Virus genome (UHGV): UHGV-1345802
Length of the DNA stretch: 14,708 nucleotides
Strand: one strand, 5' to 3'
Source of the DNA: a virus
Numbering within the stretch: the first letter of the stretch is position 1; every line of letters begins with the position of its first letter. Below the pieces are notes generated by a model. That model had not been told where the DNA came from and made no database searches. It saw nothing but the letters and a program-made list of their open reading frames with translations. This document shows positions 6,338-11,622 of the stretch, piece after piece. The translations under genes were made by a program, and so were the position numbers.

Positions 6338-6558
6338 GCCACACCTCCCAGACGCTTAAACATTTTTCCGGAGCAAAAGGCTATAAGCGGCATACTGACG
6401 CGGTAATTACGGCCCAGCGGTTCACAAATCACCTTCTGACATTCACGGTCAACCAGGCTAACACGTAGAACATGCCCTGCAGGCGTGGTGTACCACTGAC
6501 CCGGACGAGGACAACGGAAAGTCTGATTGGTAAAACGTTTGAAAATATTCCGGATCAT
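6334..6558 (-). CDS. Hypothetical small protein (74 aa)
   Basis: ATG at 6558 with GGGGG 5 nt upstream; ATGA overlap with the Rha-gene stop, and its own stop overlaps the next start. Confidence 0.5.
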   Translation of the reverse strand: MIRNIFKRFTNQTFRCPRPGQWYTTPAGHVLRVSLVDRECQKVICEPLGRNYRVSMPLIAFCSGKMFKRLGGVA

Positions 6559-7706
6559 TTGCGCCCCCTTGCCTCTGAAGGGTTCAGCGACAAATTTATG
6601 AGGCAGGCCAGCGCCGAAGCATCATTAATATAGTCATATAAGCTAACAGCCAGCGGAGATTCGGCTTTTGCCAACATAGGATAAAGCTGCTGCAGCCAGA
6701 CCTGATGAATTGATGAAATGTAGGAACAGAGAACGCTGGCGTTATGTGCAACGTCGCTCGGTACAGCAGGCTTTGAAAGCTGTTTCTCCATCTGGTTAAA
6801 GGCATTGATGTATGCCTCTTTGAACTTGGCAGCACGTTTACCCGTGAAACCCATAGCAAGAAACGCAAAACCGTCGCGGGTGATTTGGTAACAAGGGAGT
6901 TTGCGGCCTGATGCGTCGGTGTATTCACTTAACACAAAAATGTGTTCAGTAAATTCAGCGGAACATTCGAGGTTTCTAATTCTATCTAAAACCCGCTCAT
7001 GCCGTTTAGTAAAGTAATTAGCTACTGCAAGAGATGTGGTGACAACGCGACCATTGATAATCGTGATTTCAGGGTGAGATTGGGTTGGGAGAGTAGTCAT
7101 GGTGACAGCCCCTATGTTGAATTCAATGAACTCACCACCAAGGCTTTCCACGACCATATAGGTGGTGAGACGTACAGGGGTGGAAATACCGGTCAACATA
7201 GAACCCGGCCCAACCGAAGTTGGCCCTGCACGCCCCACCATAATTTGGGCGTAACGATGCTCATGACACGAAAAAACCGCATGAGCGCGGTTGTGCTCTA
7301 TATTGAATTTCGGGTTTCCACGCCCGGCACCCGCTTTATAAGGTGCCGGAACAGTGTAACGTCCCGGAATTGCAGAATCAATATGCTGGTGTTCCTTCAC
7401 ACTCAACAAAATCACGCCTGAATTTCCACAAAGGACTAAAGCACTCATGCGGGTAGTCTTTGCGAAGATAGATAACGCGCTGTGTTTCTGGCTCCCAACG
7501 AATAACATGGACATAAAGCCCTCTTCCGTCACGAAACCAGCGGTTAAGTTCCTGCACAACTCGCCCCCCACAGTCAGGTAAAGTTCTCTGTGGTTACTTA
7601 CAGCCAGGTGATTTGGTAATCTGCATTCATGCCGTAACAACAGGTGTTCAGCGACGCTGACCACCAGCTGTTGCGACAAACGGTTATTTGCCGTTAAACT
7701 GTTCAT
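6555..7706 (-). CDS. Rha-family phage regulatory protein with an unexplained ~200-aa N-terminal extension (possible fusion or two genes)
   Basis: Residues from the internal Met at 7100 (MTTLPTQSHPEITIINGRVVTTSLAVANYFTKRHERVLDRIRNL...) look like the Rha (pRha) domain. The frame is open upstream to an ATG at 7706 that overlaps the preceding stop (ATGA). The N-terminal 202 aa match no family I recognise. Confidence 0.6.
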   Translation of the reverse strand: MNSLTANNRLSQQLVVSVAEHLLLRHECRLPNHLAVSNHRELYLTVGGELCRNLTAGFVTEEGFMSMLFVGSQKHSALSIFAKTTRMSALVLCGNSGVILLSVKEHQHIDSAIPGRYTVPAPYKAGAGRGNPKFNIEHNRAHAVFSCHEHRYAQIMVGRAGPTSVGPGSMLTGISTPVRLTTYMVVESLGGEFIEFNIGAVTMTTLPTQSHPEITIINGRVVTTSLAVANYFTKRHERVLDRIRNLECSAEFTEHIFVLSEYTDASGRKLPCYQITRDGFAFLAMGFTGKRAAKFKEAYINAFNQMEKQLSKPAVPSDVAHNASVLCSYISSIHQVWLQQLYPMLAKAESPLAVSLYDYINDASALACLINLSLNPSEARGRK

Positions 7707-8365
7707 GCGTTAGTTTCTCCACAACCAGAAGCAATCGACGCCACGACGCCCGGAGCTGCACACTCGCGGGCGTTACTCTTTTCCGGCGCACAAAAAACAC
7801 GAAATAACAGTGTTAAATGCTCCTGCCACTTCGCCATTACTTGGTAGCTGTTCTCTTCGATTTGCTCACGCTCAGCCTGGTCAATAACTCCATCAGCAGT
7901 TGCCTTGCGTAAGTACTGGGAATGCTTGCCAATCCATTCTATTGACTCCATCAGCCGCTGATTAATGTCACCATTGTCAATGTCATCAATGTCCACCAGC
8001 GGCACAAACACCCCATTACAACGACGCGCTATCGCATCCGTTACATGCCTGGTACCACTGGCATCCTGTAAAACCATGGCCCACTCAAGTGGAAAAATTT
8101 GATCCCCACCGCTACGCAGTCTGTTATGCAATTGATCTTTCGCTGGGGTGATATCATCAGATTTATACAAACCAAGAATTTCCGCTGCTTCCTCATAGCC
8201 ATGAGGTAAATCAGCAATCGTTCTTCGTATTGCTGCCACCAGCCATGCTGGTTGCTTATCAACTTTCCATTCAGGTTCTTTACCCACGGTTAATTCCTCG
8301 TTTCTGTGGTTACGTTTACGCAGTTGAACCGCTAACTTTTTAATAGCACTCAGGTAATCCATCAT
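7703..8365 (-). CDS. CII-position regulatory protein (CII/YdaT-like, tentative)
   Basis: About 220 aa directly downstream of cro, the slot used by lysogeny-establishment regulators. Start is ambiguous (ATG 8365 or 8362, or ATG 8398); either overlaps the cro 3' end. Family is a tentative recollection. Confidence 0.4.
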   Translation of the reverse strand: MMDYLSAIKKLAVQLRKRNHRNEELTVGKEPEWKVDKQPAWLVAAIRRTIADLPHGYEEAAEILGLYKSDDITPAKDQLHNRLRSGGDQIFPLEWAMVLQDASGTRHVTDAIARRCNGVFVPLVDIDDIDNGDINQRLMESIEWIGKHSQYLRKATADGVIDQAEREQIEENSYQVMAKWQEHLTLLFRVFCAPEKSNARECAAPGVVASIASGCGETNA

Positions 8366-8579
8366 TTGGATTGGGGTAAATATCAGGACGCAGTTCATGA
8401 GGGGTCACGGACCAGTTTCCCAACTCACAAAGTTGTAAAACCCGTTCTGACGGGACTTGATTGTTAATTACCCAATTGGCGACGGATTGAGTGGACTTAA
8501 AACCAAAGCGACGGGCTACTTCAGATAAAGATTTTCCCGCAGCCTTTACTGCTTTCTCTGTGTAGTTTTGAGATGACAT
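8340..8579 (-). CDS. cro: Cro-type HTH repressor
   Basis: 79 aa with an HTH (SLSEVARRFGFKSTQSVANWV), divergent from the cI-like gene. ATG at 8579 has AGGAG about 7 nt upstream. Confidence 0.75.
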   Translation of the reverse strand: MSSQNYTEKAVKAAGKSLSEVARRFGFKSTQSVANWVINNQVPSERVLQLCELGNWSVTPHELRPDIYPNPNDGLPECY

Positions 8580-8587
8580 ACCTTTCT

Positions 8588-8649
8588 CCTCTGAAATTCA
8601 GAGGGATAATGCTACTTAAAATAGCAAATTGCAACTACTTAAAATAGAA
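8588..8649. promoter_or_regulatory. oR/pR-pRM divergent control region
   Basis: Candidate pR on the minus strand: -35 TTGCAA (8629-8634), 17-nt spacer, -10 CATTAT (complement of 8606-8611). Repeated CTACTTAAAATAG at 8612-8624 and 8635-8647. A 17-bp perfect palindrome CCTCTGAAATTCAGAGG (8588-8604) lies between the -10 and the cro Shine-Dalgarno. Confidence 0.55.
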
Positions 8650-9390
8650 ATGACTAGCGCGTGCGATGTGAGTAATCTTCTACCTATGGTAGAAGAACAG
8701 AAGTATCCAGATTTCGCCAAGAGACTAAACGAATTGATGACAATCAAAGGAATCTCTGTCACTCAACTCAAAAGTCTTGTGGGCGTTACATATGAAATGG
8801 CTCGTCGATACACAATCGGCGCAGCGAAGCCACGTGTCTCTGTCATGAGTAAACTTGCGTTGGCTCTTGGAGTATCAGCTTCATATCTAGAATATGGTGT
8901 TGGAGATAGAGAGGAATGTAAGGAAATGGCAAGCATCCCCAATCCAACAAAGCCCGATGTATACAGGATAGAAGTTTTGGATCTTAGCGTTAGCGCAGGA
9001 CCTGGGACCTATATGCTTTCAGACTATGTTGATGTGCTCTACGCCATTGAGTTCACAACTGAACATGCCCGTTCTCTTTTCGGAAACCGTTCTCAGAATG
9101 ATATAAAAGTTATGACGGTAAATGGAGATAGTATGTCCCCAACTCTTGTTTCCGGGGATCGATTGTTTGTCGACATTTCCGTTCGCCACTTCCAGACTGA
9201 TGGAGTTTACTCTTTCGTTTACGGTAAGACTTTCCATGTTAAACGTCTACAAATGCAAGGCAACAAACTAGCTGTTCTTTCGGATAACCCCGCCTATGAG
9301 AAATGGTACATTGATGAGAAGTCGCAAGATCAGCTTTATGTTATGGGTAAGGCACTGATTCATGAGTCGATTAAATATAATCGACTTTAA
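8650..9390 (+). CDS. cI: cI-type prophage repressor (HTH_XRE + S24 LexA-like peptidase)
   Basis: N-terminal HTH (LNELMTIKGISVTQLKSLVGVTYEMARRY) and a C-terminal S24 domain with GDSMSPTL and a downstream Lys (HVKRLQ). The start has no Shine-Dalgarno (ATG 8650 or ATG 8686; track start TTG 8629), consistent with a leaderless cI message. Confidence 0.85.
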   Translation: MTSACDVSNLLPMVEEQKYPDFAKRLNELMTIKGISVTQLKSLVGVTYEMARRYTIGAAKPRVSVMSKLALALGVSASYLEYGVGDREECKEMASIPNPTKPDVYRIEVLDLSVSAGPGTYMLSDYVDVLYAIEFTTEHARSLFGNRSQNDIKVMTVNGDSMSPTLVSGDRLFVDISVRHFQTDGVYSFVYGKTFHVKRLQMQGNKLAVLSDNPAYEKWYIDEKSQDQLYVMGKALIHESIKYNRL

Positions 9391-9624
9391 TTAGGCATCT
9401 AGCAATCGTTAAAGCAAACGAGCACAGATGATAAAAGATAAGGATAGAAAATCTTTATACAAATTTTATTTGGCACATTGGTCCATAAAAATGGATTAAC
9501 ACTGAGCTGTTACCCTAAGTAAGAAAAGATAAAGACCATATGTTATCTTTGGGTGCGTTACTAACACAAAAAAAACCAAAATAAAACATAAATAATAGAC
9601 AATTCTATACAACAGGATACGATA

Positions 9625-10710
9625 ATGATTAATGAACGTACTGAAGCGACAGATGGGGTAGCAGATATGATTTCCACCAATACAAAATATTTAGTATGGA
9701 ACAACAAAGGTGGTGTAGGAAAAACTTTTCTTACATATAATCTTGCCGTTGAGTTTGCTATATCTCATCCGGATCAAGATGTTGTGGTTATTGACTCATG
9801 CCCTCAATCAAACGTTTCAGAAATTATTCTTGGTGGCAATGGTACCGGGGAAGAAAATCTAAATAAATTGCGAGACAGAAATGTTACAATCGCAGGTTAT
9901 ATCAAGGAGCGTTTTAGCAAATCTCCTTTGTCTCGTTTAGGAAATGAATCTTCTTACTTTGTACGAGCCCATGATGTTAATGCAAAAATGCCAGAGAACT
10001 TATATATTCTTCCTGGTGATGTCGATCTTGATATCTGTTCACGCTTAATATCTCACATTGGCTCATCCCCAGTAAAAGAAGCATGGAAGAAAAGCCGATC
10101 TTTGCTGGTAGATCTAATAGCATCTTTTGAAGCCGATAAAAACATTTCTGACAGAGCAAAAACATTTTTTATTGATTGTAATCCAAGTTTTGCCAGCTAC
10201 ACAGAATTGGGAGTAGTCGCGGCAAATAGAATAATTATCCCTTGCACTGCCGATGCTGCATCAATTCGCGGAATAAAAAACCTTGTTAAACTTATTTATG
10301 GAGTGTCTATTGACAAGTCAGAACAAGATGAAATGTTCTTAGATTTCAACAAAGAAGCAAAGCAAAACCTTATCGAACTACCTGAACTACACCTTTTCGT
10401 ACAAAACCGCTCAAGAACTAATGAAAGTGATGCAGCAAAAGCATTCAAATCACATGCAGAAGAGATCAAAAGAATCACGGATGACCTGTTAAATACACAT
10501 CCTCATCTGTTCACAAATGTGGCTACTTTCGAGAGAGTTCAAAATGTCAAAGATGGTAATACTCTTGCAGCAATAATAAACCATGAGGGATGCCCTTTAA
10601 GTAGGCTGCAGCATAAGAGTTACACTATCTATGGTATGGCGACCCAAGCTAATAGAGCACAAATTGAAGCACTAGAATCTGATGTTTCAACAGTAGTCAA
10701 GTGTCTGTAA
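9625..10710 (+). CDS. Orphan ParA/MinD-family P-loop ATPase in the rex-equivalent position (candidate superinfection-exclusion or defence moron)
   Basis: Deviant Walker A NNKGGVGKT, then IDSCPQSN and FFIDCNPSF...IIIPCTADAASIRG matching ParA/Soj motifs; 361 aa with a long C-terminal extension. The gene and flanks are visibly AT-rich, and no ParB-like partner was seen. ATG at 9625 (AGGAT upstream); alternative ATG at 9670. Confidence 0.75.
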   Translation: MINERTEATDGVADMISTNTKYLVWNNKGGVGKTFLTYNLAVEFAISHPDQDVVVIDSCPQSNVSEIILGGNGTGEENLNKLRDRNVTIAGYIKERFSKSPLSRLGNESSYFVRAHDVNAKMPENLYILPGDVDLDICSRLISHIGSSPVKEAWKKSRSLLVDLIASFEADKNISDRAKTFFIDCNPSFASYTELGVVAANRIIIPCTADAASIRGIKNLVKLIYGVSIDKSEQDEMFLDFNKEAKQNLIELPELHLFVQNRSRTNESDAAKAFKSHAEEIKRITDDLLNTHPHLFTNVATFERVQNVKDGNTLAAIINHEGCPLSRLQHKSYTIYGMATQANRAQIEALESDVSTVVKCL

Positions 10711-10746
10711 TACAATAACCATGATTTAGAACGAACATAATTCTCG

Positions 10747-10770
10747 CCCGACCAACAGGTCGGGTTTTAT
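10747..10770 (+). terminator. Intrinsic terminator after the ParA-like gene (tImm-like)
   Basis: Stem CCCGACC (10747-10753) / GGTCGGG (10758-10764), loop AACA, followed by TTTTAT. Confidence 0.7.
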
Positions 10771-10985
10771 ACTCGTAGCCTGCTTAATAACACTGTTCCT
10801 GACCCGTTGTATCCATAGTTCCCACTATTTTCCCCAAAATTATTACTATCTAATTAACCTAATAATTAAACCAAAACAAAAGACACTCGATATTTTCTAT
10901 ACGTAACTACACCACATCCCCCCATCTGTGAAAAACCTTTTAATTCATAACGTTATATAGAAAACTAAAAATTAAATACACACTT

Positions 10986-11027
10986 CTACTTTTTGTTGTT
11001 GATTTTTGCTACTTTTAGTAGCATCAT
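10986..11027 (+). promoter_or_regulatory. Candidate pL/oL: near-duplicate of the pR/oR cassette
   Basis: -35 TTGATT (10999-11004), 17-nt spacer TTTGCTACTTTTAGTAG (differs from the pR spacer at 2 positions), -10 CATCAT (11022-11027). Operator-like CTACTT motifs at 10986-10995 and 11009-11021. Confidence 0.5.
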
Positions 11028-11037
11028 TATCTGAACA

Positions 11038-11054
11038 AACAACAGACTGTTGTT
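11038..11054. repeat. 17-bp perfect palindrome AACAACAGACTGTTGTT at the predicted start of the leftward early transcript
   Basis: Read directly from the sequence. Same position relative to the promoter as the unrelated palindrome at 8588-8604 downstream of pR. Confidence 0.5.
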
Positions 11055-11439
11055 AACGAAAGGTTGGTTGTAACACGGCGTATGGCACATGCGTCGTTAG
11101 CGGTCTGGGGACGTTAAAGGGGACAATCCACTCCTTGCTCGGGCAAACAAACCAGGTAGCCGGAATGTGCAAGTCAATGATGATGCTGATAAGACGCCTA
11201 ACCAGCGTGGCGATTCGGTTTGACGCTTGGGAAGAGACCAGGGTGCAACGATGAGGGCATTTATGGAGCCGCGACAAAGTGTGGTGCCGTAACTGGCTAA
11301 GTGCTCTCAGCGTTGTGGTAATCCGCGAAATGGCGCGGCGGTAAGTATGGCGGGGTTACTCTTTCCCCGTTGAGGACACCGGATTGTCAGGTTGACCATA
11401 CGCCTGAGTGACAACCCCACCACAACAGCCACTGCTTTG

Positions 11440-11485
11440 GCGGTACCAGTTTGTACACTTGCTTCCGGCTGGTACCGCTCTTTTT
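11440..11485 (+). terminator. Strong hairpin plus U-tract in the early-left leader (tL-like terminator or attenuator)
   Basis: 10-bp stem GCGGTACCAG (11440-11449) / CTGGTACCGC (11469-11478), 19-nt loop, followed by TCTTTTT. Confidence 0.5.
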
Positions 11486-11622
11486 ACAAAACAGAGAAGA
11501 GCATCACCGGACGACGGGCTCATAACCCAATCCATCCGGGCGGCTGCCACCGCAGGTGTTCTTCTCTGTTTTGTGGAGAAACCAACCGACCTTTCAGGGT
11601 CGATATGATGAGGAGCAGCAAA

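Follow-up and report, generated by a model that had tools for sequence, protein, structure and literature searches.

What does a solitary gene for a ParA-type ATPase do in the immunity region of a lambdoid prophage? The question is raised by UHGV virus genome UHGV-1345802, analysed here as one stretch of 14,708 nucleotides (the window). A first-pass annotation of this DNA had pointed to a lone ParA/MinD-type ATPase gene between the stop codon of the cI-like repressor gene (9390) and the side of the leftward promoter (pL), in a slot likened to that of lambda rexAB, and had proposed an undescribed defence or exclusion function. The gene was recovered as the single open reading frame (ORF) of this interval (Table 1), and a second operator palindrome at its far end bears out the likeness of the slot. 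We are highly confident that the gene is an orthologue of gipd474 of Salmonella and that it functions in defence; very likely it represents the E. coli orthologue, i.e. a stand-alone, lysogen-expressed anti-phage defence gene located in the slot between repressor and left operator of a CPS-53/KpLE1-like lambdoid prophage.

Relationship to the defence gene gipd474

The function is thus not undescribed: the family, its position in the immunity region and its phenotype were reported in November 2025 for the Salmonella orthologue, with E. coli in clade I of the family (Bosma, Noireaux & Bowden, AEM 2025, PMC12724215). In that study, gipd474 (STM474_RS13505; WP_000368620.1) is a single gene within the immunity region of prophage Gifsy-1 of S. 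Typhimurium 4/74 (coordinates 2,768,985-2,770,070; 1086 bp), is found also in Gifsy-3 of strain 14028s, and is neighboured by the repressor and by Cro-type and CII-type regulators; the protein contains GGVGKT at residues 29-34 in an AAA_31 domain, plus an extra C-terminal region called 'unknown domain', and clade I is made up of Salmonella and E. coli (PMC12724215). Deletion of gipd474 in strain 4/74 restored the plating of Felix O1, and complementation brought the resistance back. When expressed alone from a low-copy pLac plasmid in LT2 or in E. coli K-12, GiPD474 brought a drop of about 5 logs in the plating of T4 and Alf5 and a strong reduction in the plaquing of Felix O1; there was no effect on T7, SP6, LPST153, Jbel, VpaE1 and S16. 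Transcription of gipd474 in the lysogen was high (>500 transcripts per million in exponential phase), and an action after adsorption was suggested by the authors, though unconfirmed (PMC12724215).

The window protein belongs to the same 90%-identity cluster as the 'ParA family' proteins of S. enterica and S. Typhimurium, and is 93% identical over 361 amino acids to the Salmonella members of this cluster and to the allele of loci L085-L089, which combine a Gifsy-1/-2-like backbone with a short repressor of the Phage_CI_repr type. This places it within the definition of a GiPD474 homologue used in the published study (at least 70% identity and at least 70% coverage; PMC12724215). The gene length of 1086 bp, the GGVGKT motif at residues 29-34, the AAA_31 domain and the arrangement as a single gene adjoining the repressor agree with the published gipd474 as well. 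The defence function that had been postulated earlier is therefore supported by a 93%-identical orthologue that gives about 5-log resistance as a single gene and is strongly expressed in the lysogen. Both genes are single, repressor-adjacent members of the same family and encode 361 amino acids; they differ in their context, for the window gene lies in a CPS-53/KpLE1-like prophage, whose repressor is of the S24 cI type, and GiPD474 in a Gifsy prophage with a short CI-type repressor, and in their flanking spacers and terminators, which are unrelated between the E. coli and Gifsy alleles.

These two alleles are 93% identical in protein sequence compared with 81% in nucleotide sequence (pN 0.043, pS 0.73; ratio of non-synonymous to synonymous substitution rates, dN/dS, 0.017), which at the sequence level indicates strong purifying selection on the gene. 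Beyond the published work, the breadth of the family, its four prophage lineages, the dN/dS ratio and the placement of the fold are new here.

In the literature on ParA-like proteins with anti-phage or superinfection-exclusion functions under other names, only the GiPD474 paper was relevant, and accession WP_000606712 did not occur in the literature or in the supplements of PMC12724215. The apparent 'ParA' strings in PMC12366544 are not whole-word matches.

Protein fold, conserved residues and mode of action

Pfam searches assigned residues 24-227 to AAA_31 (3e-16), followed by CbiA, with ArsA and ParA as the only further matches; PHROG 164 ('ParA-like partition protein') was matched at 2e-46. 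In the AlphaFold2 model (mean predicted local distance difference test, pLDDT, 86; predicted template-modelling score, pTM, 0.88), the nearest folds are those of the nucleoid-binding ParA group, and MinD (about 20), NifH and Mrp types rank behind, by structure comparison and concordantly by Foldseek. Sequence identity to members of this group (chromosomal ParA/Soj, McdA, delta of pSM19035, ParA2 of V. cholerae and ParA of pNOB8) is 12-21%; the window protein differs from them by about 100 extra residues in family-specific insertions, and its gene by the absence of a ParB, McdB or omega partner and of a centromere. Significant alignment with DIP2308 of Corynebacterium diphtheriae (PDB 3pg5), another ParA-like protein of 361 amino acids, is confined to the Walker A and Walker B regions. 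Judged by the order of secondary-structure elements, the 'unknown domain' of GiPD474 would follow the strand-helix pattern that is usual for the C-terminal part of a ParA fold.

Across 30 homologues, down to 55% identity, all positions of the Walker A motif are invariant or nearly so; Lys28 (signature lysine), Lys33 (P-loop), Asp57 (Walker A') and Asp184 (Walker B) are invariant and Thr34 is nearly so (at least 90%); further invariant residues lie within the motifs SE(I/M)ILGGNG, PGDxDLDxCS, PCTADAAS and NVKDGNT. Four cysteines (C59, C138, C185 and C207) are invariant in the same set. In NifH, Mrp/ApbC, CooC, Get3 and ArsA, which belong to the SIMIBI/ParA class, cysteines at the dimer interface act as ligands of metals or clusters. 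Neither an effector domain nor a separate sensor domain was detected by Pfam or PADLOC, and the biological question raised by the gene is how a ParA-fold ATPase that lacks an effector domain stops a phage.

As a specific mechanism we tentatively, and with low confidence, propose DNA-associated interference by an ATP-bound dimer. The protein would form an ATP-sandwich dimer, as do ParA, Soj and McdA, and the dimer would associate with DNA, since its fold most resembles that of the nucleoid-binding ParAs; on meeting a phage-specific component it might block replication, expression or packaging of the phage DNA, directly or abortively, and would thus act as a switch after adsorption.

Several observations weigh against the reading as a GiPD474-type defence gene or against its mechanistic part. 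The identity of 93% refers to Salmonella proteins of the same cluster and to Gifsy-type loci, not to WP_000368620.1 itself, and the E. coli and Salmonella alleles differ at about 25 positions, which are concentrated in the first 18 residues and at 298-303, with the phenotype known for the Salmonella allele only. No PADLOC model represents the window protein; the sole match in PADLOC-DB v2.0.0 (2023) was to Drt5 at noise level (E = 0.007, 13.6 bits). The protein is acidic (isoelectric point 5.8), and its C-terminal 120 residues gave no significant alignment to the DNA-binding region of B. subtilis Soj; the full-length hhalign alignment covers residues 16-219 only. Neighbourhoods of the family in non-phage genomes are not clearly defence islands: the neighbours of distant homologues are heterogeneous, with a few restriction-modification, AAA_21 and IS1595 genes, no conserved partner and no quantifiable enrichment. 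Finally, the published study contains no Walker/ATPase mutants, abortive-infection tests or escape mutants (PMC12724215).

Defence might alternatively proceed by abortive infection through a host target, in that a regulator of the MinD/Soj/FleN kind would, upon a phage trigger, poison cell division, replication initiation or another process with a ParA/MinD-type partner. The very narrow specificity within phage families (T4 affected, S16 and Jbel not; Alf5 and FO1 affected, VpaE1 not) is typical of trigger-sensing abortive systems, and the activity in both Salmonella and E. coli K-12 would fit a conserved host partner. This route is a serious rival, but is likewise given low confidence: the C-terminus (...ESDVSTVVKCL) shows neither an evident amphipathic membrane-targeting helix nor a conserved basic/hydrophobic motif, the fold is nearer to the nucleoid-binding ParAs than to MinD, and the family occurs in bacteria and archaea that share no Min or flagellar partners.

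A wider view, which is possible but on balance doubtful, is that GiPD474 may be only the first tested member of a much larger, widespread and mechanistically new class of partnerless ParA-fold ATPases of about 340-360 amino acids that are carried by prophages, mostly behind the repressor, as single-protein immunity. Because nuclease, protease, pore and NADase domains are all lacking, such a class would owe its protection to the ParA switch itself, and ATP-dependent DNA binding or positioning would sequester or mislocalise the phage DNA or the replication or packaging machinery. To our knowledge, no described defence system works in this way. An analogy to the STAND class (Avs), also single-gene, ATPase-based defence with narrow phage specificity, was drawn by the GiPD474 authors (PMC12724215); the window protein has the SIMIBI ParA/MinD fold and not that of STAND, and the likeness is one of analogy only.

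Distribution, prophage lineages and the slot behind the repressor

A region of 1610 bp comprising the gene was found at at least 95% identity in 71 of 5,426 complete E. coli genomes, and the gene is annotated as 'ParA family protein' in all E. coli records among the matches listed; a nucleotide search of a phage collection gave no match. The cI allele of the window, at at least 99% identity, is likewise present in 71 genomes, equal in number to the gene carriers, and alleles of 90-95% identity are present in another 133 genomes. A 'ParA family protein' carried by about 1.3% of complete E. coli genomes should be annotated as phage defence, not as partition, and this is relevant to predicting failures of phage therapy or biocontrol, as T4-like and Felix-O1-like phages are affected.

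The gene lies directly 3' of the repressor gene, on the same strand, with two unrelated repressor types, i.e. the cI-like type with S24 and helix-turn-helix (HTH) domains and the short CI type. Pairwise comparison resolved four lineages of ParA-like proteins in prophages: lineage A (GiPD474 type); lineage B (phi297 type) of Pseudomonas and enteric prophages, 35-39% identical to A and 70-92% identical internally (L003:6010-7062 in Pseudomonas phage phi297; L121-L144 in enteric prophage contigs); lineage C (S.Inf 5-2 type; record unannotated), 31-33% identical to A; and lineage D (PMV-1 type), 22-25% identical to A. Lineage B is outside the published filter of at least 70% identity (PMC12724215). 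In PADLOC, lineages B and C gave no match and lineage D matched PDC-M28B over the Walker A region only. Members of lineages A, B and D were seen directly 3' of a repressor. This position is held by the alleles of lineage A and most of those of lineage B, in phages of E. coli, Klebsiella, Salmonella and Pseudomonas, including divergent alleles in Klebsiella phage ST11-VIM1phi8.2 (83%) and Pseudomonas phage phi297 (38%); the exception is a sub-group of lineage B (L121-L129, L142 and L144), in which the gene follows a KilA-N/ANT antirepressor gene and an ORF of 281 amino acids.

The lineage D protein of E. coli PMV-1 (WP_000167381.1; 358 amino acids; Walker A FNHKGGVSKT) is 23% identical to the window protein; its gene follows a cI allele of 91% identity and fills the same slot (L145:5432-6508). 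It was found in 109 of the 5,426 E. coli genomes and, as a distant look-alike in the same slot of a further 2%, readily suggests itself for the same role, as a candidate defence gene. Behind a 92% cI allele in strain 09-00049 (L146:5278-5977) the slot is taken up by an unrelated cassette that encodes small hypothetical proteins, and behind an 80% cI allele in strain TUM9812 (L147:5275-5949) by another, again unrelated; neither of these two-gene cassettes had a Pfam or PADLOC identity. The gap between cI and the left operator thus appears as a cargo hotspot, since related prophages carry unrelated cassettes there.

In lambda, the slot between cI and pL holds rexAB, and in 933W it holds stk; the two proteins of RexAB form an abortive system that depolarises the membrane, and stk codes for a kinase. 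Pfam revealed no homology of the ATPase to RexA or RexB; one gene is present here, and only the genomic position is in common. Gifsy-1 of strain 14028s carries remAIN as defence cargo in this slot (PMC12724215). Like lambda rexAB, 933W stk and remAIN, the window gene lies downstream of the repressor gene, on the same strand and before the left operator, as a lysogen-expressed, phage-excluding function; its product, one predicted soluble ParA-fold ATPase, has no sequence or fold relationship to RexAB or Stk.

The tight linkage to the repressor across several unrelated immunity types could also be explained by a primary role for the prophage itself, in lysogeny, induction or host replication (as for Soj with DnaA), with resistance as a side-effect of overexpression from a plasmid; co-transcription with cI is possible, with no intervening terminator, and the heterologous tests used the pLac plasmid (PMC12724215). 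Such a role is improbable, for it was chromosomal deletion in 4/74 that restored Felix O1 plating, an effect reversed by complementation, so that native expression suffices; moreover, the slot holds other defence cargo elsewhere (remAIN in Gifsy-1 of 14028s, rexAB in lambda), and the gene is dispensable for immunity, because closely related cI alleles carry unrelated cargo.

That the gene encodes a genuine ParA that segregates a plasmid-like form of the prophage, with ParB and centromere overlooked, is hardly credible and was rejected, because neither here nor in related loci did a ParB gene, repeats of a centromere or a conserved partner turn up: the ParA fold, the deviant Walker A motif, the labels of PHROG ('ParA-like partition protein') and RefSeq ('ParA family protein') and the presence of one E. 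coli copy out of 71 on a plasmid record of 205 kb would agree with partition, but the interval from cI to the left operator contains no further ORF, there are no centromere-like iterated repeats (only two-copy chance matches and a three-copy, A-rich, 11-nt low-complexity run), no ParB-like or other neighbour recurs in 142 related loci (crude gene calls with clustering of neighbours), 70 of the 71 copies are chromosomal, the NCBIfam partition equivalogs score far under their cut-off (48.9 bits vs 180), and the orthologue confers phage resistance when expressed from a plasmid that provides no partition context (PMC12724215). The MinD and BcsQ equivalogs of NCBIfam are likewise far under their cut-offs, and the copy in locus L001 is part of an integrated prophage with integrase and excisionase. 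Of the elements of a ParABS system, the deviant Walker A ATPase was found, whereas a gene for a centromere-binding partner, a centromere and an autonomous element were not; as described in the first-pass annotation, the ATPase gene stands alone. The plasmid-borne copy (NZ_CP126947.1:161838-162923; E. coli APEC E18005, plasmid record of 204,838 bp) possibly belongs to a phage-plasmid or to a prophage integrated in a large plasmid.

The A-type family is distinct and extends far beyond the Enterobacteriaceae. When 1.84 billion representatives were searched exhaustively with a profile, 123 of its clusters were recovered at E <= 1e-30, and with the limit at E <= 1e-10 the number was 505. Homologues of 35-60% identity are spread over many bacterial phyla and metagenome-assembled genomes (MAGs) of archaea; the family reaches Planctomycetes, Verrucomicrobia, Spirochaetes, Firmicutes, Cyanobacteria and archaeal MAGs. 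Contigs of Methanoperedenaceae and Bathyarchaeia MAGs (L040 and L066) carry members at 39-47% identity; these archaeal members suggest horizontal spread on a very wide scale or, possibly, contaminated bins.

Organization of the immunity region and expression of the gene

The immunity region is arranged in the order cro-like gene, operator, cI-like gene, spacer, ParA-like gene, terminator, non-coding AT-rich DNA, operator; its features are summarized in Table 1. In the annotated locus L001 and in the Klebsiella and Pseudomonas phages the gene has a corresponding setting beside the repressor gene.

Table 1. Features of the immunity region of the window and the basis of their assignment.
Feature	Position	Strand	Basis or remark
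cro-like regulator gene (YdaS/HTH), divergent from the repressor gene	8340..8579	-	Pfam YdaS_toxin 3.5e-11 and HTH_3; 'transcriptional regulator' in the annotation of L001
Right-operator palindrome TGCTACTTAAAATAGCA, between cro and cI	8610..8626		2-3 mismatches relative to the site at 11007 (pattern search)
cI-like repressor gene (HTH_3 and Peptidase_S24)	8686..9390	+	Pfam; RefSeq-equivalent start 8686 (705 bp)
AT-rich spacer, 234 nt, 30.3% G+C	9391..9624	+	no intrinsic terminator
gipd474 orthologue, ParA-fold ATPase of 361 amino acids	9625..10710	+	sole ORF; ORF listing and Pfam
Deviant Walker A motif K28-GGVGK33-T34 (signature Lys and P-loop Lys)	9706..9726	+	read from sequence
Intrinsic terminator: 8-bp stem (6 GC pairs), 4-nt loop, T-run	10746..10775	+	stem 10746-10765
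AT-rich, C-skewed non-coding stretch from terminator to left operator	10776..11006		33% G+C, GC skew about -0.3
Left-operator palindrome TGCTACTTTTAGTAGCA, perfect, on the pL side	11007..11023		pattern search

The operator palindrome would be expected 0.04 times by chance, and its two occurrences place the gene between cI and the second operator, as rexAB is placed in lambda. A promoter-like site on the + strand (8616-8645; consensus scan) overlaps the palindrome between cro and cI, and the ORF of cI, if called mechanically, begins at TTG 8629 and ends at 9390. The hexamers of a pL promoter failed the consensus scan, and no ORF of at least 20 amino acids is present at 10716-10985.

The AT-rich upstream spacer and the terminator following the gene, both described in the first-pass annotation, were confirmed. 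The contrast in G+C content reported there is real, but was overstated: the ORF has 37.7% (27% at third codon positions) and its 3' spacer 33.4%, compared with 42.3% in cI and 48-50% in the remaining window, of which only 11100-11550 reaches 55%.

For the start of the ATPase, M1 was chosen over M15 (9667; 347 amino acids in some database entries), because the AGGAT Shine-Dalgarno sequence and the ATG at 9625 are kept in 11 enteric alleles and because the distance from M1 to M15 among these alleles (33, 39, 42 or 45 nt) always varies in frame. Only the last approximately 34 nt of the spacer, including AGGAT, are conserved with other alleles (9591-9624), and the nucleotide identity that the E. 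coli allele shares with the Gifsy allele does not extend beyond 9591-10711; the shared part thus consists of the ORF and its ribosome-binding region, not of spacer and terminator, and the terminator is not conserved at the nucleotide level with Gifsy or Klebsiella alleles. The idea that the gene forms a cassette of its own is only partly right: spacer and terminator do not belong to a shared mobile unit, and co-transcription with cI is possible, as neither a terminator scan nor RNA folding of the spacer revealed a terminator between cI and the gene.

Transcription by read-through from the repressor promoter, in analogy to cI-rexAB of lambda, is plausible. A consensus scan gave no convincing sigma-70 promoter in the spacer; transcription of the E. 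coli gene in the lysogen would depend on read-through from the repressor promoter, on a spacer promoter, or on both. The RNA of the spacer (9385-9630) is more stable than shuffled controls (-40.2 kcal/mol, z = -2.55) and contains a 9-bp hairpin at about 9478-9499 that has no U-run and is not conserved in other alleles.

Positions 11050-11620 (51-55% G+C), which lie downstream of the left operator, contain no convincing + strand ORF ahead of a YfdP-like coding region and matched no Rfam family; in relatives this region is annotated with a frameshifted hypothetical gene (L145:7553-7863). Rfam matches elsewhere in the window comprise a tandem of C4 antisense RNA (82 bits; 7158-7245, - strand) and the Hfq-binding small RNA isrK (62 bits; 7270-7346, - strand), which is located within the 5' part of a long, mechanically called ORF (6555-7706), upstream of a Rha/Ash-type gene, and is similar to the c4-ant module of P1/P7 and the isrK module of Gifsy for antirepressor control.

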